This document shows positions 34,198-62,084 of a stretch of 64,000 bases of DNA, piece after piece. The notes under the pieces were generated by a model. The model was not told the DNA's origin. It saw nothing but the letters and a program-made list of their open reading frames with translations, and searched no databases. This DNA comes from Malacoraja senta. Its lineage: Eukaryota. The position numbers and the translations under genes are program-made. The stretch lies in NCBI GenBank assembly GCA_038087875.1, contig CM075992.1:3722001-3786000 (forward strand). Direction: 5' to 3'. Each line of letters starts with the position of its first letter. The stretch's first letter is position 1.

Positions 34198-35256
<1,059 letters not shown>

Positions 35257-36417
35257 TTAGTCCTTAACTACCAGGAGACACCCAGTGCCCAGAGCATTGC
35301 TGCAGGGGGGTCAGAAACTCATCTTCTCAAGGAGTGCACATGAAGTACAATAGAAAATAAGACATAAAATGCTGGAGTAACTCAGCAGATCAGGCAGCAG
35401 CTCTGGAGACCATGGATAGGTGACGTTTCAGGTCCTGTTTTTGCAATTCCCAGACCAAGCAATGAAAGCTTTTCACTGTACCTCGGTACACGTGACAACC
35501 AACCAAACTGAAATGGATATAAAACGTCAGGATACTTCGTAGACCACAGTCCGATCTACAAACATCCAAGTATTACTCCATTCGGCCCATTAAGTCTACT
35601 CCGCCATTCAAACATGGCTGATCTATCTCTCCCTCCGAACCCCATTCTCCTGCCTTCTCCCTATAACCTCTGACACCAGTACTAATCAAGAATCTATCTA
35701 TCTCTGCCTTAAAAATATTCATTGACGGCCTCCACAGCCTTCTGTGGCAATGAATTCCACAGATTCACCACCCTCTGACTAAAGACATTCCTCCTCATCT
35801 CCTTCCTAAAGGTATGTCCTTTAATTCTGAGACTGTGACCTCTGGTCCTAGACTCTCCCACTAGTGGAAACATCCGCTCCATACCCACTCTATCCCAGCC
35901 CCTCGCTATCCAGTAAGACAAGCAGGTGTGGAGGCTAATTGGCTTGGTATAAAGGTAAAAATGATCCCTAGTGTGTGTTGGATAGTGTTGGTGTGTGGGG
36001 ATCGCTGGTCGGCGCGGACTCGGAGGTCCGAAGGGCCTGTTTCCGCACGGTATCTTTAAAGTAAAACTAAATGAAGACCCACTTGGACCACGAGTCCGCG
36101 GCGACCATCGATCCCCGCACACCAACACTATCCAACACACTTCAGTCTGAAGATGGGTTTCGGGCCGAAACGTTGCCTCTTTCCTTCGCTCCATAGATGC
36201 TGCCGCACCCGCTGAGTTTCTCCAGTATTTTTGTCTACCTTCGTAAACTAAATGAAGACCCGCTGTGTTACAATAGACAATAGACAATAGACAATAGGTG
36301 CAGGAGTAGGCCATTTTGCCCTTCGAGCCAGCACCACCATTCAATGTGATCATGGCTGATCATCCCCAATCAGTACCCCGTTCCTGCCTTCTCCCCATAT
36401 CCCCTGACTCCGCTATC

Positions 36418-38397
36418 TTTTTTAATTTTTTTTAATGTTTTTAATTTTTTTAATAGAAGTATTTTACATTACAGTAATCTGCAATAACGTACGTTTATAC
36501 AGTTCTTGTACCACTTCTTATTTTAAACTTTAATAGGAAAAAAGGATAGAAAGAGTTAGTAAAGATAGTCAGTGAGTGAGTGAAAGAGTGGTCCAGGAAC
36601 ACCCATATGAACCTAAACCACAAGAAATAGTTAAAAAAGAAAAGAAAAAAACCAAAAGGCGGAAAAAGAAAAAAGAAAAAAGTAAGATAGGACATTATGA
36701 GAGGGATGTACCTACTTCTTATCTTTACTCACCCCTCGCCAGGTCCTAAAACCATTTATTATCAACATTTTGTTGCACCCTATGTTTGTAATAAGTCGAT
36801 ATATGGAGACCAAATCTTTTGGGATTGGTCTTGTTTACCTGCTAGGAGGAATCTCATATCTTCTAGGTGTAACAATTCTGACATATTAGAAGTCCACATT
36901 TTTATTGTTGGCGTGGGAGCATTTTTCCAAAATTTCAGTATCAGTTTTTTTGCCATTATTAAGCCATAATTAAGAAAACTCCTTTGAAACGTAGTCAGCT
37001 CCAAACTTGCTTCTATTGTTCCAAAAATAATCAATTCTGCATTCGGTTTCAGTTTTATTTTAAATAATTTAGTGAAAATTTCAAACATTTCATACCAAAA
37101 TGTTTGAATTTTTATACAAAAAACAAAAGAATGTGCTATAGTTGATTCTTGGATTAGGCATTTATCACAGATAGCAGAGGTATTTGGGTAAAATTTACTT
37201 AATTTAGCTTTTGAATAGTATAATCTATGTAAAATTTTAAATTGAATCAGAGTATGTCTTACGTTAATCGAGCATTTATGCACATATAATAGGTGTTTAT
37301 CCCAACTCTCTTTCGAGATTTTTATAGCTAGTTCCTGTTCCCATTTTCTTCTAATCCCATCCGATGATGGAATTTCTATGTTTAAAATGGAATTGTATAG
37401 GTATGATATTAAATTAGCTGATTCCGCTTTTATATTCATTATCCCATCTAATAGGTCAGGAGACATATTTTGATATTCTCGTGTATACTTTTTCAAATAG
37501 TCACGTATTTGAAAATATTTGAAATATTGATTACTATTCAGGTTGTATTTAAGTTGTAATTGGTGAAATGTTAAAAAAACTTCCATTATCATACATATCT
37601 CCAAACGTTTTAATTCCTACTCTATCCCAATTTATAAAAGCTCTATCTATCATAGGTTTAAACAAAGGGTTATTCATTTTAACCTTAATTTTATTTGTTT
37701 CCAAATTCTAATTGTACTATGAATAATTGGATTTTTACTATATATTGTATTCTTCATTTTTGTTGGTGAGAGAAGGATCGCTCCTATGTTAAAAGGGGAA
37801 CAGTCCTCTCGCTCCATTACTATCCAATCCACCTGCTGGGCCGAATTGTCCAACAGGTGAATCATATTTTTGACATTTGTGGCCCAATAATTATATTAAA
37901 AATTGGGGAGTGATAATCCACCAAATTCTTTAGGTTTACACAAATGTTTTCTTTGGATTCTGTGGAATTTATAGTCCCATATAAAGTTTGTAATATTCGC
38001 ATCAAATTAAAAAAAAATTTTGGTAAGTATATTGACTGGAATAGATATAAAATTAGTGGTAAAAAGATCATTTTTATAGCATTTATTCGGCCTATAAGAG
38101 ACATCGGGAGGGTTTTCCAGAATTTAATCAGTGTGTTTAGTTTATTGAGTAAGGGCATATAGTTTGCATTAAATAGAGATTTATATTTTCTAGTAATTTC
38201 AATTCCCAAATATTTAAATTTTTCTGAAGCGATTTTAAAAGAGAATTTTAACAGGTGTGTCGGTTCTTGAGGTTTAATCGTCATAATTTCACTTTTATTC
38301 CAATTTATTCTATATCCTGAAAGGATCCAAATTCCTCTATTAAATTTAATGTATTTGGTATACTAGTTTGTGATTTTGTGATATATAGTAGTACATC
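36418..38397 (-). mobile_element. L1/Tx1-clade LINE, 5'-truncated ORF2 with poly(A) tail (copy A)
   Basis: FKYLGIEIT, W..LPMSLIGRINAIKM..LP, QFKILHRLY, CDKC...H...C knuckle; AT-rich; T-run at left end. Confidence 0.9.
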
Positions 38398-38934: not shown

Positions 38935-39839
38935 TTAGTTTTAGGAAGGAACTGCAGGTGCTGCAGTTTTACACAAAATGCCGGAGTAACTCAGCGGGAC
39001 AGGCGGCATCTCTGGAGAGAGGGGCTATCTAGTATCTTTAGTCAGAGGGTGGTGAATCTGTGGAATTCTTTGCCACACAAGGCTGTAGAGGCCAATTCAC
39101 TGGATAATTTTAAGGCAGAGGTAGATAGATTCTTGATTAATTCAGATGTCAGAGGTTATGGGGAGAAGGCAGGAGAATGGGGTTAGGAGGGAGAGATAGA
39201 TCAGCCATGATACAATGGCGGAGTAGACGTTTTGGGCCAAATGGCCAAATTCTACTCCTATCCCTTATGACCTTATTAATAGGTGATGTTTCGGGTCCCT
39301 AAACGTTACCCATTCCTTCTATCCAGAGATGCTGCCTGTTCCACTGAGTTACTCCAGGTTTAGTTTAGTTTAGAAACACAGTGCGGAAACTGGCTCTTTG
39401 GCCTGCCGAGTCCACACCGACCAGCGATCCCAACACATTAACACACACTAGGGACAATTTACAATTACACCAAGCCAATTAACCTACAAACCTGTGCATC
39501 TATAGAGTGTGGAAGGAAACCGAACATCTCTGCCCAACTTGCCCACACCGGCCAACACATCCCAGCTACACTAGTCCCACCTGCCTGCGCTTGGTCCATA
39601 TCCCTCCAAACTTGTCCTATCCATGTACCTGTCTAACTGTTTCTTAAATGTTGGGATAGTCCCAGCCTCAACTACCTCCTCTGGCAGCTTGTTCCGTACA
39701 CCCACCACCCTTTGATGGGAGACGAGCCCAGCCATCCCAATAAACAATAGACAACAGGTACAGGAGAAGGCCATTCGGCCCTTCAAGCCAGCACCGCCAT
39801 TCAATGTGATCATGGCTGATCATCCCCAATCAGTACCCC

Positions 39840-40039
39840 NNNNNNNNNNNNNNNNNNNNNNNNNNNNNNNNNNNNNNNNNNNNNNNNNNNNNNNNNNNNN
39901 NNNNNNNNNNNNNNNNNNNNNNNNNNNNNNNNNNNNNNNNNNNNNNNNNNNNNNNNNNNNNNNNNNNNNNNNNNNNNNNNNNNNNNNNNNNNNNNNNNNN
40001 NNNNNNNNNNNNNNNNNNNNNNNNNNNNNNNNNNNNNNN
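39840..40039. other. Assembly gap (200 N)
   Basis: N run between two near-identical 5-kb segments. Confidence 1.
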
Positions 40040-41692
40040 CAACGGCCCGTGAGCCCCAGGCCGAGTTCAGCGATCGTTTGCCTGCTTCTGCTGCTGTTGG
40101 AGGTGAGACGTAGCGTCGCGCCAGGGTCTTGTCCCACTTTGATTAGGTTTTTAGATTAGATTAGATTTTATTGTCATTTGAACCTCAAAGAGGTTCAAAC
40201 GAAATTCCATTTCCACAGCCATACAAACAAAACAATTCCTACACGACACACAAACAATTCAATCTACAGAAAAACATCCATCACAGTGAATCTCCTCCTC
40301 ACTGTGATGGAAGGCAAAGTCTTTTCTCTCCGTCTTTTGGCCGTCAGTTACGCGACAGGCCGGTGGCGCGCGAAGATTTCGTGCAGGACAAAGTCCACAC
40401 TCCTCCACGCCACTCCATGCGCCCGTCCCCACGTGCTACCTACACGCTAACAGGTCGCGTAAATGGCGCGCGAAAGACAGCCAAGTGGGACAGGCCCTTT
40501 AGTCCTTAACTACCAGGAGACACCCAGTGCCCAGAGCATTGCTGCAGGGGGGTCAGAAACTCATCTTCTCAAGGAGTGCACATGAAGTACAATAGAAAAT
40601 AAGACATAAAATGCTGGAGTAACTCAGCAGATCAGGCAGCAGCTCTGGAGACCATGGATAGGTGACGTTTCAGGTCCTGTTTTGCAATTCCCAGACCAAG
40701 CAATGAAAGCTTTTCACTGTACCTCGGTACACGTGACAACCAACCAAACTGAAATGGATATAAAACGTCAGGATACTTCGTAGACCACAGTCCGATCTAC
40801 AAACATCCAAGTATTACTCCATTCGGCCCATTAAGTCTACTCCGCCATTCAAACATGGCTGATCTATCTCTCCCTCCGAACCCCATTCTCCTGCCTTCTC
40901 CCTATAACCTCTGACACCAGTACTAATCAAGAATCTATCTATCTCTGCCTTAAAAATATTCATTGACGGCCTCCACAGCCTTCTGTGGCAATGAATTCCA
41001 CTGATTCACCACCCTCTGACTAAAGACATTCCTCCTCATCTCCTTCCTAAAGGTATGTCCTTTAATTCTGAGACTGTGACCTCTGGTCCTAGACTCTCCC
41101 ACTAGTGGAAACATCCTCTCCATACCCACTCTATCCAGCCCCTCGCTATCCAGTAAGACAAGCAGGTGTGGAGGCTAATTGGCTTGGTATAAAGGTAAAA
41201 ATTATCCCTAGTGTGTGTTGGATAGTGTTGGTGTGTGGGGATCGCTGGTCGGCGCGGACTCGGAGGTCCGAAGGGCCTGTTTCCGCACGGTATCTTTAAA
41301 GTAAAACTAAATGAAGACCCACTTGGACCACGAGTCCGCGGCGACCATCGATCCCCGCACACCAACACTATCCAACACACTTCAGTCTGAAGACGGGTTT
41401 CGGGCCAAAACGTTGCCTATTTCCTTCGCTCCATAGATGCTGCCGCACCCGCTGAGTTTCTCCAGTATTTTTGTCTACCTTCGTAAACTAAATGAAGACC
41501 CGCTGTGTTACAATAGACAATAGACAATAGACAATAGGTGCAGGAGTAGGCCATTTTGCCCTTCGAGCCAGCACCGCCATTCAATTGATCATGGCTGATC
41601 ATCCCAAATCAGTACCCCGTTCCTGCCTTCTCCCCATATCCCCTGACTCCGCTAACTTTAAGAGCCCTATCTAGCTCTCTCTTGAAAGCATC

Positions 41693-43683
41693 TTTTTTAA
41701 ATTTTTTTAAATGTTTTTAATTTTTTTAATAGAAGTATTTTTACATTACAGTAATCTGCAATAACGTACGTTTATACAGTTCTTATACCACTTCTTATTT
41801 TAAACTTTAATAGGAAAAAAGGATAGAAAGAGTTAGTAAAGATAGTCAGTGAGTGAGTGAAAGAGTGGTCCAGGAACACCCATATGAACCTAAACCACAA
41901 GAAATAGTTAAAAAAGAAAAGAAAAAAACCAAAAGGCGGAAAAAGAAAAAAGAAAATAAGATAGGACAATATGAGAGATATGTACCTACTTCTTATCTTT
42001 ACTCACCCCTCGCCAGGTCCTAAAACCATTTATTATCAACATTTTGTTGCACCCTATGTTTGTAATAAGTCGGTATATGGAGACCAAATCTTTTGGAATT
42101 GGTCTTGTTTACTCTTCTAGATGTAACAATTCCGACATATTAGAAGTCCACATTTTTATTGTTGGTGTAGGAGCATTTTTCCAGAATTTCAGTATCAGTT
42201 TTTTTGCCGTTATTAAGCCATAATTAAGAAAACTCCTTTGAAACGTAGTCAGCTCCAAACTTGCTTCTATTGTTCCAAAAATAATCAATTCTGCATTCGG
42301 TTTCAGTTTTATTTTAAATAATTTAGTGAAAATTTCAAACATTTCATACCAAAATGTTTGAATTTTTATACAAAAAACAAAAGAATGTGCTATAGTTGAT
42401 TCTTGGATTAGGCATTTATCACAGATAGCAGAGGTATTTGGGTAAAATTTACTTAATTTAGCTTTTGAATAGTAAAATCTATGTAAAATTTTAAATTGAA
42501 TCAGAGTATGTCTTACGTTAATCGAGCATTTATGCACATATAATAGGTGTTTATCCCAACTCTCTTTCGAGATTTTTATAGCTAGTTCCTGTTCCCATTT
42601 TCTTCTAATCCCATCCGATGATGGAATTTCTATGTTTAAAATGGAATTGTATAGGTATGATATTAAATTAGCTGATTCCGCTTTTATATTCATTATCCCA
42701 TCTAATAGGTCAGGAGACATATTTTGATATTCTCGTGTATACTTTTTCAAATAGTCACGTATTTGAAAATATTTGAAATATTGATTACTATTCAGGTTGT
42801 ATTTAAGTTGTAATTGGTGAAATGTTAAAAAAACTTCCATTATCATACATATCTCCAAACGTTTTAATTCGTACTATCCCAATTTATAAAAGCTCTATCT
42901 ATCATAGAAGGTTTAAACGAAGGGTTATTCATTATAGGTGAGAGAAGTTAATTTTAACGTTAATTTTATTTGTTTCCAAATTCTAATTGTACTGTGAATA
43001 ATTGGATTTTTACTATATATTGTATTCTTCATTTTTGTTGGTGAGAGAAGGATCGCTCCTATATTAAAAGGGGAACAGTCCTCTCTCTCCATTACTATCC
43101 AATCCACCTGCTGGGCTGAATTGTCCAACAGGTGAATAATATTTTTGACATTTGTGGCCCAATAATTATATTAAAAATTGGGGAGTGATAATCCACCAAA
43201 TTCTTTAGGGTTACACAAATGTTTTCTTTGGATTCTGTGGAATTTATAGTCCATATAAAGTTTGTAATATTCGCATCAAATTTTTTTTTTTAAATGTTGG
43301 TAAGTATATTGACTGGAATAGATATAAAATTTGTGGTAAAAACATCATTTTTATAGCATTTATTCGGCCTATAAGAGACATCGGGAGGGTTTTCCAGAAT
43401 TTAATCAATGTGTTTAGTTTATTGAGTAAGGGCATATAGTTTGCATTAAATAGAGATTTATATTTTCTAGTAATTTCAATTCCCAAATATTTAAATTTTT
43501 CTGAAGCGATTTTAAAAAGGGAATTTTAACAGGTGTGTCGGTTCTTGAGGTTTAATCGTCATAATTTCACTTTTATTCCAATTTATTCTATATCCTGAAA
43601 AGGATCCAAATTCCTCTATTAAATTTAATGTATTTGGTATACTAGTTTGTGATTTTGTGATTTTGTGATATATAGTAGTACAT
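41693..43683 (-). mobile_element. L1/Tx1-clade LINE (copy B in duplicated segment)
   Basis: Same ORF2 fragments as 36418-38397. Confidence 0.9.
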
Positions 43684-53315: not shown

Positions 53316-54149
53316 GTATCCTACACACACTAGGGACAATTTACATTTACCAAGCCAATTAACCTTCAAACCTGTACGTCTTTGGAGTGTGGGAGGAAAC
53401 CGAAGATCTCGGAGAAAACCCACGCGGGTCACGAGGAGAACGTGCAAACTCTGCACAGACAGCACCCGTGGCCGGGGTCGAACCCGGGTCTCTGGCGCTG
53501 TGAGGCAGCAACTCTACCGCTGCGCCACCGCGCTGTTCTACCACAACTATGGCTCGTTGCCAATAACCAAACGGAGTTTTGGGTGACCATTCTGGTGTAA
53601 GTACAATTGATAACACACACACTCGAGTTGTGGTTTAACCTGAGCTCCACGGATCACACTTATGTGCAATATCTGTGCATCTCGGTTCCCAGACATGTTT
53701 GGCAATTGGAAACTCATCTCTCTGGATAATATATAAAAGAGTATAAAATTTCCAGAGGGTTAGATAGGGTGTACTATTAGAACCATTTCCCTAGGGTCCA
53801 AATGTCAAACACTAGTGTGGCATGGTGGCGCAGCAGTAGAGTTACAATGCTTACAGACCCGGGTTCGATCCCATCTCCGGGTGCTGTCTGTACAGAGATT
53901 GTACGTTCTCCTCGTGGTCTGCATGAGATTGGCCTTTCCCCTGATTTGTTTTCATCGTTGAATCGCAGCAAGATATTCCTTTAGATCTCCAGCATCTCGG
54001 CCAACGTTCACGTTTGTTCCTCTGCTGGTTAATAAGAAGCAGCTTTTGGAGAGGTATTGGAGCGTAGGGTTGGAGCTTGGCTTGTTGATTTGCCCAACGT
54101 TGGAGCCACTGCGGTGTGATTATTAACTGCACGACTCTCCACGGGTTCC

Positions 54150-54155
54150 TATAAA
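54150..54155 (+). promoter_or_regulatory. TATA box of the beta-defensin-like gene
   Basis: cTATAAAg 50-62 bp upstream of the in-frame ATGs at 54200 and 54212. Confidence 0.65.
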
Positions 54156-54211
54156 GAGGTTTAGTGCGCTGCTCGTCTGATGGATGCTATCTTTGAGGAA
54201 TGCAGCAGAAG

Positions 54212-54307
54212 ATGAGGAAAGCCCTGATCTCCACCCTCGGTGTCCTGCTGCTGCTGCTGCAGATACTCTCTGCCACTGAAAGATCAGGACGCACGCAACG
54301 CACAATG
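54212..54307 (+). CDS. Beta-defensin-like gene exon 1: signal peptide and short pro-piece (alternative in-frame ATG at 54200)
   Basis: MRKALISTLGVLLLLLQILSATERSGRTQRTM then GTCAGT donor; basic n-region, Leu-rich h-region, small-residue cleavage site. Confidence 0.75.
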
Positions 54308-54579
54308 GTCAGTAATGCCTACTATGTTCTGTTGTGCTGAAGCAAAGCAAGAATTTCATTGTCCTATCAGGGACACATGACAATTATCTCTCTTGAACGA
54401 ACTTGAGCTGCACACTCCAAAGACGTACAGGTTTGCAGGATAATTGGCTTGGTGTAAAATGTAAAATTGTCCCTAGTGTGTGTAGGATAGTGTTAATGTG
54501 CGATGATCGCTTGTCAGTGCGGACTGGGTGGGCCGAAGGCCGTTTCCACGCTGTATCTCTAAACTTAAATACAGATAAA

Positions 54580-54972
54580 CGAAACATTCTGGAGCCATTT
54601 ACAGTGTGCAGACACATGATGAAATGAATAACGTTTAGTGCAAGGTAAAGCCAGTAAAGTCTGATCAAAGATTATCCAAGCGTCACCAATGAGGTGGGTA
54701 GTAGTTCAGCACTGCTCTCTGGTTGTGGTAGGATGATTCTGTTCCCTGATAACAGCTGGGAAGAAACTGTCCCTGAATCTGGAGGTGTGTGTTTTCACAC
54801 TTCTATACCTTTTGCCCGATGGGAGAGGGGTGAAGAGGAGTGGCCAAGGGTGCGACTGGTCCTTGATTACGCTGCTGGCCTTGCCGAGGCAGCGTGAGGT
54901 ATAAATGGAGTCAATGGAAGGGAGGTTGGTTTGTGTGGAGGTCTGGGTTACTTCCACAATTCGCTGCGATTT
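54580..54972 (-). mobile_element. Rex1-like LINE 3' fragment in the defensin intron (similar at 1480-1660, 2340-2660, 16375-16770, 60070-60270)
   Basis: SRCLGKASSVIKDQSHP..LFTPLPSGKRYRSVKTHTSRFRDSFFPAVIR C-terminal motif. Confidence 0.75.
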
Positions 54973-55078
54973 CTTGTGGAGTTTTGCAAATTAAACTGGG
55001 TGAACGACCGAGAGGTCGTCGTGGTTACGGGAACTCAGACCCCCCCCCGACCAAAGAACGTTCCCTTTTTTATTTCAG

Positions 55079-55191
55079 GGCAGAAGTGTCGACAGATCGG
55101 GGGACTTGCCGAGCAAAGATGTGTCTGCAAACGGAGACGCCTTTTAAAGATCCCTTGCATCAAACATTACCGGTGCTGCAAAACAAAATGA
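55079..55191 (+). CDS. Beta-defensin-like gene exon 2: mature six-cysteine cationic peptide (acceptor at 55079 or 55084)
   Basis: ttcccttttttatttcag acceptor; QKCRQIGG...C...KIPCIKHYRCCKTK-stop with terminal CC and basic tail; overlapping frame gives GTCRAKMCLQTE. Confidence 0.8.
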
Positions 55192-55299
55192 CCGAGAGAC
55201 CGCCACACTTGCTACTCCCAAGTTCCTAACTTTAACTCAGGCTCCCGTTCCTTAGCTAGGCCCGGTGACCCTGACCCCTGACCTGGCAGACTTGTCAGA

Positions 55300-55305
55300 A
55301 ATAAA
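55300..55305 (+). terminator. Polyadenylation signal of the defensin-like gene
   Basis: AATAAA about 110 nt after the TGA, followed by a T/GT-rich stretch. Confidence 0.65.
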
Positions 55306-55819
55306 ACTTACTGCTTTGATCAAAGACTTGTATTCTTGTCGTCTTTCTCTCGGGGAAACAGCAACAGTAGCCCAGGTAACCATTCACCCACTTTGATCAA
55401 ACACCTTTAGGGATCAGCGTGGTTGGACATTGACTACAGGAAGGTCTCTAGTTAAGGGTGTGAAGACTGAACCATCTTACAAACACCAAACATGGAGGGC
55501 TAACTGAGTCAGATATTGGAGGGCTGCATGTTGGAACTGCGGTAGAGTTGCTGCCTCACAGCGCCGGAGACCCGGGTTCAATCTGACTACGGGTGCTGTC
55601 TGTACGGAGTCTGCACATTGTCCTTGTGTCCACGTGGGTTTTCTCCGGGCGCTCCGGTTTCCTCCCACACTCCAAAGACGTGCGCGTTTTGTAGGTTAAT
55701 TGACCCTCTGTAAATTGTCCCCAATGTGCGGGGAGTGGCTGTGAAAGTGGGATAACATAGTACTAGTGTTGGTCGGCGTGGACCTGGTGAACTGAAGGGC
55801 CTGTTTCCTTGCTGTATCT

Positions 55820-56622: not shown

Positions 56623-57909
56623 CTGATGTGGAACAATAGAGACAGCAGGGTCAGCGTTAATGCGTCCCGTACCCCCCGCTCAGCGATGTCCGCACCAGCC
56701 CTGCCCCACACTTGGCCACTTGGATACACTTGGATAGGACAGGTATGGACCAAACGCAGGCAGGTGGGACTAGTGCAGCTGGGACATCCTACCTTCTATC
56801 TTTGTCCCGCCCCCTCCCCCTGACATCAATCTGAAGAAGGGTCTCGACCCGAAATGTCACCCATTCCTTCTCTCCAGAGATGCTGCCTGTCCCGCCGAGT
56901 TACTCTAGCGTTTTGTAGCTGGGACATGTAGGCCGGTGTGGGCAAGTTGGGCCGACAGGCTGTTTCCACACTGTATCACACTGTGACTATATATATATAT
57001 ATGTGTATTTGTGAGTATGTGCACATATACACGCACTGATTTTTTTCTCTTTCGTTTATTATGTTGCTTGCAGTGTACTATGTTTACATATCCTGTTATG
57101 CTGCTGCAAGTAAGAATTTCATTGTTCTATCTGGGGCATATGACAATAAAACACTTGCCTCTTGACTCTAAACTGGGATGACCTCTCAGGGTGGTGGCAC
57201 AGTGTCGAGGCAGTCAATGTCTCTGACTCTGTGATCCAGTGACCCAGGTTCGATTCCGACCACCGCTGTCAACTCTAGCTGAAAGATACTGAGTCTGGAG
57301 GTGGCTCAGAGGGCGGCACCGTGAGGCAGCAGCTCTACCTGCTGCGCCATTGTCGCCTCCCAACTTTGACTCCAATTTAATGCTAAAATCACCCCCCCCC
57401 CCCCAAGGGAAAGGGCCATATCAAGAACGGGAGTCAAGGGTTATGGGAGAAGGCAGAAAAATGGGAATAGGAGGCAGAGATCAGCCATGATTGAATGGAG
57501 GAATGAACTCGATGGGCTGAATGGCCCAATTCTAACCTGTGAGATCCAAGTGCATGGAACTGCAAATGCTGGTTTAAACCAAAGATAGACACAAAATGCT
57601 GGAGTAACTCAGCGGGACAGGCAGCATCCCTGGGGAGAAGGAATGGGTGATGTTTCGGGTTCTGACGAGGAAGGGTCTCGACCCGAACGTCACCCATTCC
57701 TTCTCTCCAGAGATGCTGCCTGTCCCGCTGAGGTTACTCCAGCACTTTGTGTCTATCTTCAATTTAAACCAGCATCTGCAGTTCCATGCACTTGGATCTC
57801 ATAGGTTATGGGAGTAGAATTTGGGCCATTCAGCCCATCTTAGATCCAACATGGTCATCTAACCATTAACCGCCCATGGTCTAACACTTCCCCGTTGTAA
57901 CGCGGTCAC

Positions 57910-58205
57910 CTTAAAGGCCTCCCAGGTGGTGATTTCACTGAAGAGGGGCGTTGCCGGGGCAACTGGTGACCCTGTGTTGCCGATGTCCCTGGATGGCGTA
58001 GTCGCTGGTGATCTTCCCACCAGCCAATGCACATCTGGTGAAGCTGTCCCTCACCAGCACCAGCGCCGACTGCTCGGGCAGCTCCGAGCTGTAGTTACCG
58101 ATGAAGCCCACGCCGTAGCCCTTGGAGTTCTGGCCTTTGGTGTGGGCCCCCAACCAGTGCCAGCCGCGGCCCTCGTACATGTATCCGTCCGAACCCACCA
58201 GGAAG
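57910..58205 (-). CDS. PGLYRP2: PGLYRP2 amidase-domain exon (one +1 frameshift near 57945-57948)
   Basis: SFLVGSDGYMYEGRGWHWLGAHTKGQNSKGYGVGFIGNYS...GHRQHRVTSCPGNA/LFSEITTWEAFK; AG/GT. Confidence 0.92.
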
Positions 58206-58604
58206 CTGCAGACACCAGGGGACAGTCAATGATGCCCCACCATCACACTCCCCCTCTCTCCCAACACCACATCCGTGCATCTCCTTGTCATCTCCCGCCT
58301 TGATCTACCCATTTGCCAATTATCCCATCTCCCCATCTGTCCGTCCTTCCCTCCCTCCCTCCCTCCCTCCTTCCCTCCATCCCTTTCTCCTTCCCTCCTT
58401 CCATCCCTCCCTCCTCTCTCCCTCCTTCCCTCCCTCCTCTCCCTCCCTCCTCTCCCTCCTCCCTCCTTCCTTCCCTCCCTCCCTCCCTCCCTCCCTCCCT
58501 CCTCCTTCCCTCCCTCCTCCCTCCCTCTCCTCCCTCCTTCCCTCCCTCCTCTCCCTCCCTCCTCCCTCCTTCCTTCCCTCCCTCCCTCCCTCCTCCTTCC
58601 CTTA

Positions 58605-59535
58605 GATGACACTAAGCTGGGGGGCAGTGTTAGCTGTGAGGAGGATGCTAGGAGACTGCAAGGTGACTTGGATAGGCTGGGTGAGTGGGCAAATGTTTGG
58701 CAGATGCAGTATAATGTGGATAAATGTGAGGTTATCCACTTTGGTAGCAAAAACGGGAAGGCAGACTATTATCTAAATGGTGGCCGATTAGGAAATGGGG
58801 AGATGCAGCGAGACCTGGGTGTCATGGTACACCAGTCATTGAAAGTAGGCATGCAGGTGCAGCAGGCAGTGAAGAAAGCGAATGGTATGTTAGCTTTCAT
58901 AGCAAGAGGATTTGAGTATAGGAGCAGGGAGGTTCTACTGCAGTTGTACAGGGTCTTGGTGAGACCACACCTGGAGTATTGCGTACAGTTTGGTCTCCAA
59001 ATCTGAGGAAGGACATTATAGCCATAGAGGGAGTGCAAAGAAGGTTCACCAGACTGATTCCTGGGATGTCAGGACTTTCATATGAAGAAAGACTGGATAG
59101 ACTTGGCTTATACTCGCTAGAATTTAGGAGATTGAGAGGGGATCTTATAGAAACGTACAAAATTCTTATGGGGTTGGACAGGCTAGATGCAGGAAGATTG
59201 TTCCCGATGTTGGGGAAGTCCAGGACAAGGGGTCACAGCTTTAAGGATAAGGGGGAAATCCTTTAAGACCGAGATGAGAAAAAACTTTTTCACACAGAGA
59301 GTGGTGAATCTCTGGAACTCTCTGCCACAGAGGGTAGTGAGGCCAGTTCATTGGCTATATTTAAGAGGGAATTAGATGTGGCCCTTGTGGCTAAAGGATC
59401 AGGGGGTATGGAGAGAAGGCAGGTACGGGATACTGAGTTGGATGATCAGCCATGATCGTATTGAATGGCGGTGCAGGCTCGAAGGGCCGAATGGCCTACT
59501 CCTGCACTATTTTCTATGTATCTATGTATCTATGT
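58605..59535 (+). mobile_element. CR1-like LINE 3' fragment inserted in a CCT-rich tract, near-identical to 52395-53315
   Basis: DDTKLGGSVSCEEDARRLQGDLDRL...RPHLEYCVQ; (tctatgta)n tail. Confidence 0.92.
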
Positions 59536-59820
59536 ATCCCTCCCTCCTCCTTCCCCTCCCTCCCTCCTTCCCTCCCTCCTTCCCTCCCTCCTCCTTCCCT
59601 CCCTCCCTCCTTCCCTCCCTCCTCTCCCTCCCTCCCCTCCCTCCCTTCCTTCCCTCTCTCCTTCCTTCCCTCCCTCTCTCCTTCCCTCCCTCCCTCCTCC
59701 TTCCCTCCCTCCCCTCCTTCCCTCCCTCCACCCTGGTCGCTATGTACTCGATGGGCCGGAAAGGCCTGTATCCAGGCTGTATCTCTAAACTAAACTAAAC
59801 ATGGAGGCCCAGCCACGTAC

Positions 59821-60030
59821 CTGTATCCAATGTCGCTCCATTGCCGATCATCCTGATGGAAGTTCTGGATGCTCCTCATGTCCGCGGCACAGTCTGGGAA
59901 GTTAGTGCAAGGCTGGCTGGGCACGTAGGTGTGGTGGATATAAACAAACCTCAGGGGCAGTGCCAGCTGTACGGGCTCACCCTTGAAGGGACGGGCACCC
60001 CACATACACCGTGGATAATGGCCGGGCAGT
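59821..60030 (-). CDS. PGLYRP2: PGLYRP2 amidase-domain exon (one -1 frameshift near 60013)
   Basis: DCPAII/PRCMWGARPFKGEPVQLALPLRFVYIHHTYVPSQPCTNFPDCAADMRSIQNFHQDDRQWSDIGY; AG/GT. Confidence 0.92.
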
Positions 60031-60700
60031 CTGCGGGGAAAGACACAAATAGAGAACACACACACAACTCCACACAAACCAACATCCCTTCCATTGACTC
60101 CACTACACCTCACGCTGCCTCAGCAAGGCCAGCAGCATAATCAAGGACCAGTCGCACCCTGGCCATTCCCTCTTCTCCCTCTCCCATCGGGCAAAGGTAC
60201 AGAAGTGTGTAAAGCACACCTTCAGATTCAGGGACAGCTTCTTCCCGGCTGTTTACAGGCGACTGAAGCTTTCACTTATACACTAGATACACGTGGCAAT
60301 AAACTAAACTGACCAAAGTGCTGGTGTAACTCAGGCAGCACCTCTGGGGAACATGGATAGGCAATGTTTCGGGTCAGGACCCTTCTCACGTCTGAAGAAA
60401 GGTCCTAACTTGCAGTGTTGTTGGTCAGGGGGAGCGCAGTGGCTCAACTTGTAGAGTAGCTGCCTCACAGCGCAGAGACCCAGCTTTGATTCTGACTAAA
60501 GGCTGCTGTCTGTACGGAGTTTGTACATTCTCCCTGTGACCTGGTGGAGTTTCTCCGGGTGCTCCGTTTCCTCCCACACTCCAAAGCCCCACAGTGTTAA
60601 TTGGCTTTTGTAAAATTGACCCAGTGTGTAGGATAATGCTAGTGTACGGGATGATCGGTGGTCGGGGTGGGCCGAAGGGGGCCTGTTTCCTGCTCTAAGC

Positions 60701-61123
60701 CAGGGGTCGGCAACTTGTTCTGCATAGGGGGCGGACGCACGTCTGTGAGCGGATGGCGGGCCACATCAATCACGTGTACACATGGATCCCCGCCCCGGAT
60801 GGCAGGCATCAAATCACGTGTTCACATCGATCCCTCCACGTCGAGGATGCCCCCGCAGCACTGGCCCCCAGTTACGGGTGCTCACCAACATGGCGTACCC
60901 AGGGACCATTGCCTTGGCTCTGTCCTGAAGGCAGGTGGCTCAAATACTCACACTCACCCGTCCCCGGCCTATTGACCAACCCGATCCCGACCGCCAGCGC
61001 AGGCCTCCTTGCGTCGTTGAGGCCACGGGCCCGGGCGATACCGGAGATGACGGAAATCTGCCGGCCGGATGATTCGGGTTCGGGGCTGCATTCGGCCCGG
61101 GGGCCGTAGGTTGCCGGCCCCTG
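60701..61123. mobile_element. hAT-like non-autonomous transposon inserted in a SINE tail
   Basis: caggggtcggcaac ... gttgccggcccctg; imperfect 8-bp flanks ctctaagc/ctctaaaa. Confidence 0.8.
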
Positions 61124-61159
61124 CTCTAAAACTAAACTGAACTTCGATAGTGTCCTTAC

Positions 61160-62015
61160 CGAGATAATTCTGGTGAAAGAGTTTGACTCCTTGTTCACAC
61201 ATCTTCCTGAAGGTGTTGTGTTCGAGGTCCCCGAGGACCGATTTGTTCCGTAACTGGTCGTAGAGGGAAACGGCGCCCAGGACTTGACCGGTGAAGTTGC
61301 CCAGGTCAAAGGTGGCCTGAAAGTTCGTTCTCCGTGACCTGGCCTTGAGTGGCGGCAGGCCGGGAGCCTGGCTGTAGTAGTCCCTCAGCAGGGCGCTGAG
61401 GCTGGGCAGTGGGGGAGGGTGTTGGGCAAGGTGGTCTCCCAGGATGAAGCCATCCATGCCGCCGTTGATCAAAGCGCTGGTGGCCACGGTCCAGGGGCCA
61501 GACCTGGTGAAAACCCGCGGCAGGTCCACGTTGTCCCAGCAGCCGTCAGATGCCAGCATCTCCTGGCTCTTCTTGGCGCGGTGGGCCAGGAATGCCAGAC
61601 CCAGATCCTTGGCCAACGTCAGGGCACACAGGCTGTCCACCGGAGCCCAGAGGTCTGCATCTGCACCAGACCGAGGCGACCTCACCTCCCTCTTCAGCCC
61701 GGCTTCCATGCCTGCCACCAGGTTCCCCATGGCCACCGTGGTCCCATCCGGGGTGAGGACCACCCCCTCTCTCGACCAGGCGGCCCACCTCGTGGTTCAT
61801 CACCTCCCGGAGGAAGGTCTCCTTGGCGTGAGACAGGAGCCCCGACAGGTCCACGGGCGCCGGGACCTCCCCCAGCAGAAGGCGACGGAAATCCTGGTCA
61901 GAGGTTTGCAGGTTGCGCAGAATGGCTGTAACGTTGAGAATTGTCATCCCGGTATCCTGGCCTTCCAGCTCCTCGATGATGCCGAGAACATTACTCAGGT
62001 GGTAGGTCGGCGTGG
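61160..62015 (-). CDS. PGLYRP2: PGLYRP2 large N-terminal exon (one +1 frameshift near 61763-61772); may extend to the in-frame ATG at 62070
   Basis: HLSNVLGIIEELE...GVVLTPDGTTVAMGNLVAGMEAGLK...DGCWDNVDLPRVFT...ALINGGMDGFILG...LLRDYY...RRTNF typical of PGLYRP2; donor CTCG|GTAAGG. Confidence 0.88.
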
Positions 62016-62084
62016 CTAAGAAGAGAACAGAGATAGTCAGCAGGGGAGGAAATAGCCAGCGCCCAGTCATGTTGCCGTACAGAG

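Follow-up and report, generated by a model that had tools for sequence, protein, structure and literature searches.

A probably intact two-exon beta-defensin gene behind frame slips in a skate genome assembly, and its dispersed relatives

Layout of the locus

The DNA analysed here, called the window throughout, is a 64-kb stretch of skate contig G000:C16. Two coding exons lie at 54150..55305 on its plus strand, where a TATAAA, a signal-peptide exon, a donor, an acceptor, a Cys-rich exon and an AATAAA were all located in the sequence. The features of the locus and of its surroundings are as follows.

54150..54155, plus strand: putative TATA box (TATAAA), 62 nt upstream of the main ATG
54200..54202, plus strand: optional in-frame upstream ATG, which would add 4 residues
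54212..54307, plus strand: coding exon 1, with the main ATG at 54212, a 21-aa hydrophobic signal peptide and an acidic propiece of ~10 aa (net −2)
54308..55078, plus strand: predicted intron of 771 nt, phase 1, with a GTCAGT donor
55063..55078, plus strand: pyrimidine tract (13 of 14 pyrimidines before CAG) and acceptor AG at 55077-78, 8 nt before Cys1
55079..55191, plus strand: coding exon 2, with a 37-aa six-Cys domain and the stop codon TGA at 55189-91
55300..55305, plus strand: putative polyadenylation signal AATAAA, 109 nt past the stop
57880..62016, minus strand: PGLYRP2-like peptidoglycan amidase gene, convergent with the defensin gene, with at least two and probably three frame slips
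about 9600-45900, minus strand: exons that, from their translations, we take to be those of a VCP/p97-like AAA ATPase; a first exon was not found among them
L062:8481-8870 and L063:66-692 (G000:C16:3.80-3.81 Mb), minus strand: exons of a fatty-acid transport protein, presumably SLC27A-like, beyond the PGLYRP2-like gene

The TATAAA at 54150, the GTCAGT donor, the pyrimidine-rich acceptor and the AATAAA at 55300 had been named in an initial annotation of this DNA, and all are present as described there. The AATAAA is the only copy between 53.0 and 56.5 kb, and a TATAAA is also found ~75-85 nt before the ATG in the paralogues L050, L051 and L097, while L051-type paralogues carry a comparable upstream Met 5 codons ahead. 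The donor departs from the consensus at its +3 position. Most of the intron (about 54314-54980) is high-copy repeat DNA, with depth in the millions across the repeat part; each of the two exons is single-copy in the genome. All six Cys and the stop are encoded within a single 113-nt stretch. A second AG at 55082-83 lies 3 nt before Cys1 and is preceded by 9 pyrimidines in 14 positions.

The initial annotation also named synteny to PGLYRP2 as a check, and a PGLYRP2-like gene does lie beside the defensin gene, with its best matches in the skates Leucoraja erinacea (91%) and Rhinoraja longicauda (84%), followed by rays and sharks. Two innate-immune genes stand tail to tail about 2.6 kb apart. Elsewhere in the window, a stretch of several kb occurs twice (34582-38362 and 39820-42873) with nearly identical ORFs (for instance 34923-35267 and 40165-40509; 36780-37616 and 42109-42873). 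An N gap adjoins it at 39840-40039, and the repeated stretch is either a local duplication or an assembly overlap.

Frame slips in the assembly and the read-supported frame

Translation of exon 2 in all frames revealed the middle of a canonical beta-defensin in the neighbouring frame, which suggested two compensating slips. When words from the exon-2 stretch were looked up in public sequencing runs, 0.68 of 22 were present in one run. Three runs were then compared with 54040-55420, and only run X1 spans the exons, in two contigs of depth 31 and 38; these continue into the intron and are therefore genomic and uninformative on splicing. Outside the repeat-filled intron, X1 differs from the assembly by seven indels and one substitution (54131) in ~810 bases. 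The indels lie at 54179 (−4), 54279 (−1), 54304 (−1), 55065 (+1), 55098 (+1), 55142 (−1) and 55268 (+1), and six of the seven are single bases within one-letter runs. Four of them are coding (54279, 54304, 55098 and 55142), and X1 carries no coding substitution. Exon 1, 96 nt as assembled, is 94 nt in X1, where an A is absent at each of 54279 and 54304, and stops one base into a Gly codon; the assembled exon 2 is one G short in the run 55099-55103 and has one surplus T at 55142-55145.

With the four coding indels applied, exon 1 measures 94 nt, the first AG falls in frame, and the result is a 68-aa precursor with a Cys spacing of 6-4-10-5-0 (C-x6-C-x4-C-x10-C-x5-CC). Among the 32 combinations of four indels and two acceptors, the full X1 set with the first AG gives six Cys at canonical spacing, and the sole other canonical combination uses both exon-2 indels with the second AG. 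The canonical Cys pattern occurs nowhere in the 64-kb window as assembled and once after the two exon-2 indels are applied, compared with two occurrences in 100 locally shuffled 64-kb windows. The predicted mature domain of 37 aa contains 9 Lys/Arg and 1 Glu (~4.2 kDa, net +8, pI 9.6). Hydropathy of the read-supported precursor peaks at 3.1 over residues 11-19, which would place signal cleavage near residue 21.

These results change the gene model that had been proposed. The 67-aa precursor of the initial annotation does correspond to an open frame (54212-54307 joined to 55084), which contains frame slips, and the reads give 68 aa instead. Its choice of the second AG (exon start 55084, phase 0) gives way to the first AG in the X1 frame, and the RTQR convertase site disappears in favour of an acidic 10-residue propiece. 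The propiece sequence it reported, together with 14 residues in the middle of its mature peptide, are products of assembly frame slips, and the assembled frame has a spacing of 10-1-9-5-0 rather than the beta-defensin spacing that was quoted for it.

Each indel is represented by one contig of one run (depth 31-38), where contigs lose rare variants, and X1 may or may not derive from the assembled animal. Seven indels against one substitution would be the opposite of ordinary polymorphism. The PGLYRP2-like neighbour, used as a control, shifts frame within exons at about 61765 and 57950 relative to an intact skate orthologue, and a third slip is visible near 60020. Two further defensin copies, L013 and L057, each have a single frame slip between Cys. 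The four single-base coding slips are probably sequencing or consensus errors in the assembly, and the defensin gene is likely intact in the animal. Homopolymer errors of this sort hide small genes of such a kind from annotation and from HMM scans.

Two observations stand beside this result. Four bases of the window at 54179-54186 are absent from X1, so that one of two out-of-frame upstream ATGs is lost; this deletion lies near the likely transcription start and could be an allele or an assembly error. In L013 (G000:C2883:4167-4238, minus strand), Cys1-3 and Cys4-6 fall in different frames and the spacing resembles that of the window gene, so its frame break is likely a slip of the same kind. 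A hidden middle exon was also considered and rejected, as the intron is nearly all high-copy repeat and none is required once the indels are applied.

Membership in the beta-defensin family

On a profile built from 11 paralogues, without the peptide itself, the read-supported form scores 18.8 bits, a value reached by none of 2000 full shuffles and by 3 of 2000 shuffles with the Cys held fixed, and one that falls inside the leave-one-out range of the paralogues (10.2-44.7). A 16-paralogue profile, again built without it, gives 23.4 bits, a score matched by 2 of 2000 Cys-fixed shuffles. For the assembled form the score is −1.6 bits with either profile, and 1512 of 2000 of its own Cys-fixed shuffles do as well. 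An HMM search had been suggested as a check, and its outcome was divided: the assembled peptide, a peptide read through from Cys2 and an X-bridged peptide matched no Pfam family, PF00711 and PF13841 included, at E<=10, while the profile built from the genome's own beta-defensins does score the read-supported peptide. The 11 paralogues all match PF00711 or PF13841 at E<0.001, and 8 of them lie above the Pfam cut-off, so that these models leave 3 of 11 clear paralogues below it. The link to recognised beta-defensins is thus indirect and runs through Pfam-positive paralogues.

Searched against PDB sequences, a partial window peptide found no defensin and one unrelated match (E 9.3). The paralogue profile matched 17 PDB sequences; mouse BD-7 and human BD-2 ranked first, and avian and crocodile beta-defensins were among the rest. 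A structural model of L051, the closest-scoring paralogue, consists of a helix and three strands (pLDDT 84.6) and overlays crocodile CpoBD13, mallard AvBD3 and human BD-2 at TM 0.79 (Foldseek E 0.026-0.15).

Exon structure points in the same direction. All 16 paralogues compared have an AG at 5, 8 or 14 nt before Cys1 (15 YAG, 1 AAG), distances that require a phase-1 intron and that the phase-0 acceptor of the initial annotation does not share. Phase-1 donors end exon 1 of the paralogues at 73 nt (L002, L003, L022, L058), 91 nt (L050) or 82 nt (L097); for L051, the automated pick was a phase-0 site at 93 nt, and a phase-1 GTACGT is seen by eye at 73 nt. Exon 1 of the window gene shares 11 of 23 residues with the L097 signal peptide, which none of 5000 shuffles equalled, and is the best match to L097 among 950 open ATG windows in the 64-kb window. 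A signal-peptide profile of six other paralogues, without L097, did not pick up exon 1 (<6 bits).

The window peptide is at most 41% identical to any paralogue, and a tree of 17 peptides had no well-supported branch and did not resolve its relation to them. Taken together, the peptide appears to be a divergent member of the beta-defensin family. The view of the initial annotation that this is an easily missed two-exon beta-defensin-like gene is supported by the read-backed frame and by similarity to paralogues.

The wider repertoire of the skate

At E<=10, PF00711 matched the genome 24 times and PF13841 21 times. Both searches missed the window gene, and further copies were collected by protein searches with two paralogues. 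Besides the window gene, 21 distinct intact six-Cys cores were found (100 loci, 470 kb), so that the genome holds at least 22 different beta-defensin-like sequences. The 21 cores occur at 47 positions, or 38 after removal of 9 duplicate places, on 16 contigs; the core count is a lower bound and is biased, as the pattern detects only genes with six Cys in one exon. A genome search with PF17333 gave 13 weak matches with no intact six-Cys core among them. The next copies on the window's contig are 4.7 Mb away, and the window gene lies outside tandem clusters.

Part of this repertoire forms an amplified array, with 30 matches to L051 on contigs C1662, C2867, C3731, C4879, C1545 and C259 (L070-L099). 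One identical peptide of net charge +10 is encoded at 16 of the 20 places fetched. The unit is about 10-12 kb long, 98-99% identical and arranged in both direct and inverted orientations, and the 428-kb contig C1662 alone has 12 L051 matches. Some array places on small unplaced contigs may be the same locus assembled twice, but one 428-kb contig carries 8 intact copies. The array appears to be a recent amplification.

A second group lies on the window's own contig at 8.53-8.57, 10.1, 10.4 and 10.9 Mb (L002-L004, L012, L022, L034, L054-L058), with near-identical first exons. Defects on this contig comprise a five-Cys copy (L012), a frame-slipped copy (L057:4698-4856) and an in-frame TAG in L034, seen also in L035; L072 has an in-frame stop as well.

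Word-based homologue searches with the window peptide and L002 gave no candidate sharing three 5-residue words. A profile search of 1.84 billion representatives gave 9 matches at E<=0.001, and those examined (5 read, 6 looked up) were multi-repeat Cys-rich proteins, with no single vertebrate defensin among them. Both kinds of search are weak for 35-residue peptides, and database absence is not implied. An atlas search with L051 returned beta-defensin clusters as top matches (0.77-0.84), which serves as a lead only.

We lean towards the view that skates, and perhaps cartilaginous fishes generally, possess a large, undescribed beta-defensin repertoire of the mammalian style, made up of two-exon genes for at least 22 distinct peptides. 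These genes would be dispersed over six or more large contigs and be joined by an apparently recent array, built from a 10-12-kb unit, in which one +10 peptide is encoded 16 or more times. The window gene adds one member to a family that is well known; the array and the wider repertoire are the more interesting part, and the part of interest to a specialist.

Proposed function and alternative explanations

We propose, with a probability of roughly 0.68, that the locus is an intact two-exon skate beta-defensin gene encoding a secreted, three-disulfide, cationic host-defence peptide that is likely antimicrobial at body surfaces. The proposal builds on what the sequence shows, namely the elements of the gene, the frame backed by the reads, the spacing of the Cys, the charge and the similarity of both exons to beta-defensins of the same genome. 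Splicing, expression, cleavage, disulfide pairing and killing are extrapolated from the family. Transcription would start from the TATA box, and phase-1 splicing would join exon 1 to exon 2 at the first AG to give the 68-aa precursor, whose signal peptide, cut near residue 21, would direct it into the secretory pathway. The six Cys would pair 1-5, 2-4 and 3-6 into a beta-defensin fold, the pairing given for sea bass defensins in PMC8231796. The acidic propiece may hold the +8 domain in check until it is removed, after which the freed peptide could attach to anionic microbial envelopes and disrupt them.

Among the paralogues, net charge varies between −2 and +10, and membership in the family therefore does not fix function. 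Many amniote beta-defensins act in reproduction or as receptor ligands. An intact gene whose main job is not microbe killing, with a product in the sperm coat, the oviduct or egg-case secretion or one that is a chemoattractant receptor ligand, would accord with the divergence of the window gene and its isolation from tandem clusters, and with a spacing that fits longer-loop paralogues better, the two best local matches coming from the PF13841 search. A teleost example is seabream defb2, which PMC11541337 describes as gonad-expressed and predicted to be non-membrane-inserting. Against this, the net charge of +8, the short basic C-terminus and the lack of a long acidic or glycosylated tail are of the membrane-active type, and we consider such a role unlikely as the main one.

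Still less probable is a silent or decaying copy, in which some of the indels would be real or an intact frame would go without transcription. Beta-defensin clusters turn over fast, and this genome does contain copies with in-frame stops (L034/L035, L072) and one with a lost Cys (L012), but the X1 frame of the window gene is intact with no coding substitution, and none of TATA box, donor, acceptor and AATAAA is missing. A set of four homopolymer indels with no accompanying substitution, moreover, resembles consensus error, and the neighbouring gene is affected likewise. The peptide of the initial annotation, a 67-aa precursor spliced to the second AG, with an RTQR site and a C-x10-C-x1-C-x9-C-x5-CC pattern, has the open frame of the assembly as it stands in its favour. 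It is contradicted by the X1 contigs, scores no better than its own Cys-fixed shuffles and needs a phase-0 acceptor unlike 16 of 16 paralogues, which makes it very improbable.

Comparison with known systems

The literature surveyed (titles and the starts of abstracts, outside subscription journals) gave no description of a cartilaginous-fish defensin. Section 14 of a 2019 review of fish immunity (PMC6795676) has transferrin, squalamine and kenojeinin I as its only antimicrobials of sharks and skates, with no mention of a defensin, and in the portion seen of a shark skin proteome paper (PMC10707392) the word "defensin" occurs only within a reference. Automatic annotations of defensins in shark genomes could exist and have been missed by short-peptide searches. 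The gene and its paralogues offer concrete peptides, open to synthesis, as candidates for a part in defending the skin, gills and egg cases of cartilaginous fishes.

With vertebrate beta-defensins (PF00711, PF13841; human BD-1/BD-2, mouse BD-7, mallard AvBD3, crocodile CpoBD13) the window gene shares a signal peptide, a short propiece, a cationic domain of ~4 kDa, six Cys ending in CC and a GxC motif before Cys2. It also shares two coding exons with the six Cys in exon 2, which is the general or mammalian form according to PMC11541337 and PMC8231796. It differs in being too diverged for Pfam, in a Cys3-Cys4 loop of 10 residues that lacks the usual Gly before Cys4, and in standing alone between VCP-like and PGLYRP2-like genes with no tandem cluster. 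Among its own paralogues, those on C1545, C1662 and C259 (L051, L052, L073-L089, L097, L099) give the best pairwise mature-peptide scores and share a QKMRxAL signal-peptide start, the phase-1 intron and a short basic tail; identity to them is only ~40%, however, and theirs are multi-copy arrays whereas the window gene is single-copy.

Teleost beta-defensins (zebrafish BD1-3, sea bass and seabream defb1/defb2, olive flounder) have precursors of similar size (63-77 aa), and olive flounder forms, like the window gene, have a short proregion (PMC8231796). Teleost genes consist of three exons, the Cys being split 4+2, and a genome contains between 1 and 7 of them (PMC8231796, PMC11541337). The window gene, in contrast, is made up of two coding exons, and at least 22 distinct cores occur in the skate; the teleost-type second intron splitting the Cys 4+2 is absent from the window gene, and the seabream defb2 neighbours spag7 and mepce were not seen around it. 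The skate genes supply a missing outgroup for the evolution of the beta-defensin family and of its exon structure. If the proposed repertoire is real, a big, dispersed family of two-exon genes would likely be ancestral in jawed vertebrates, and the small three-exon set of teleosts would be derived.
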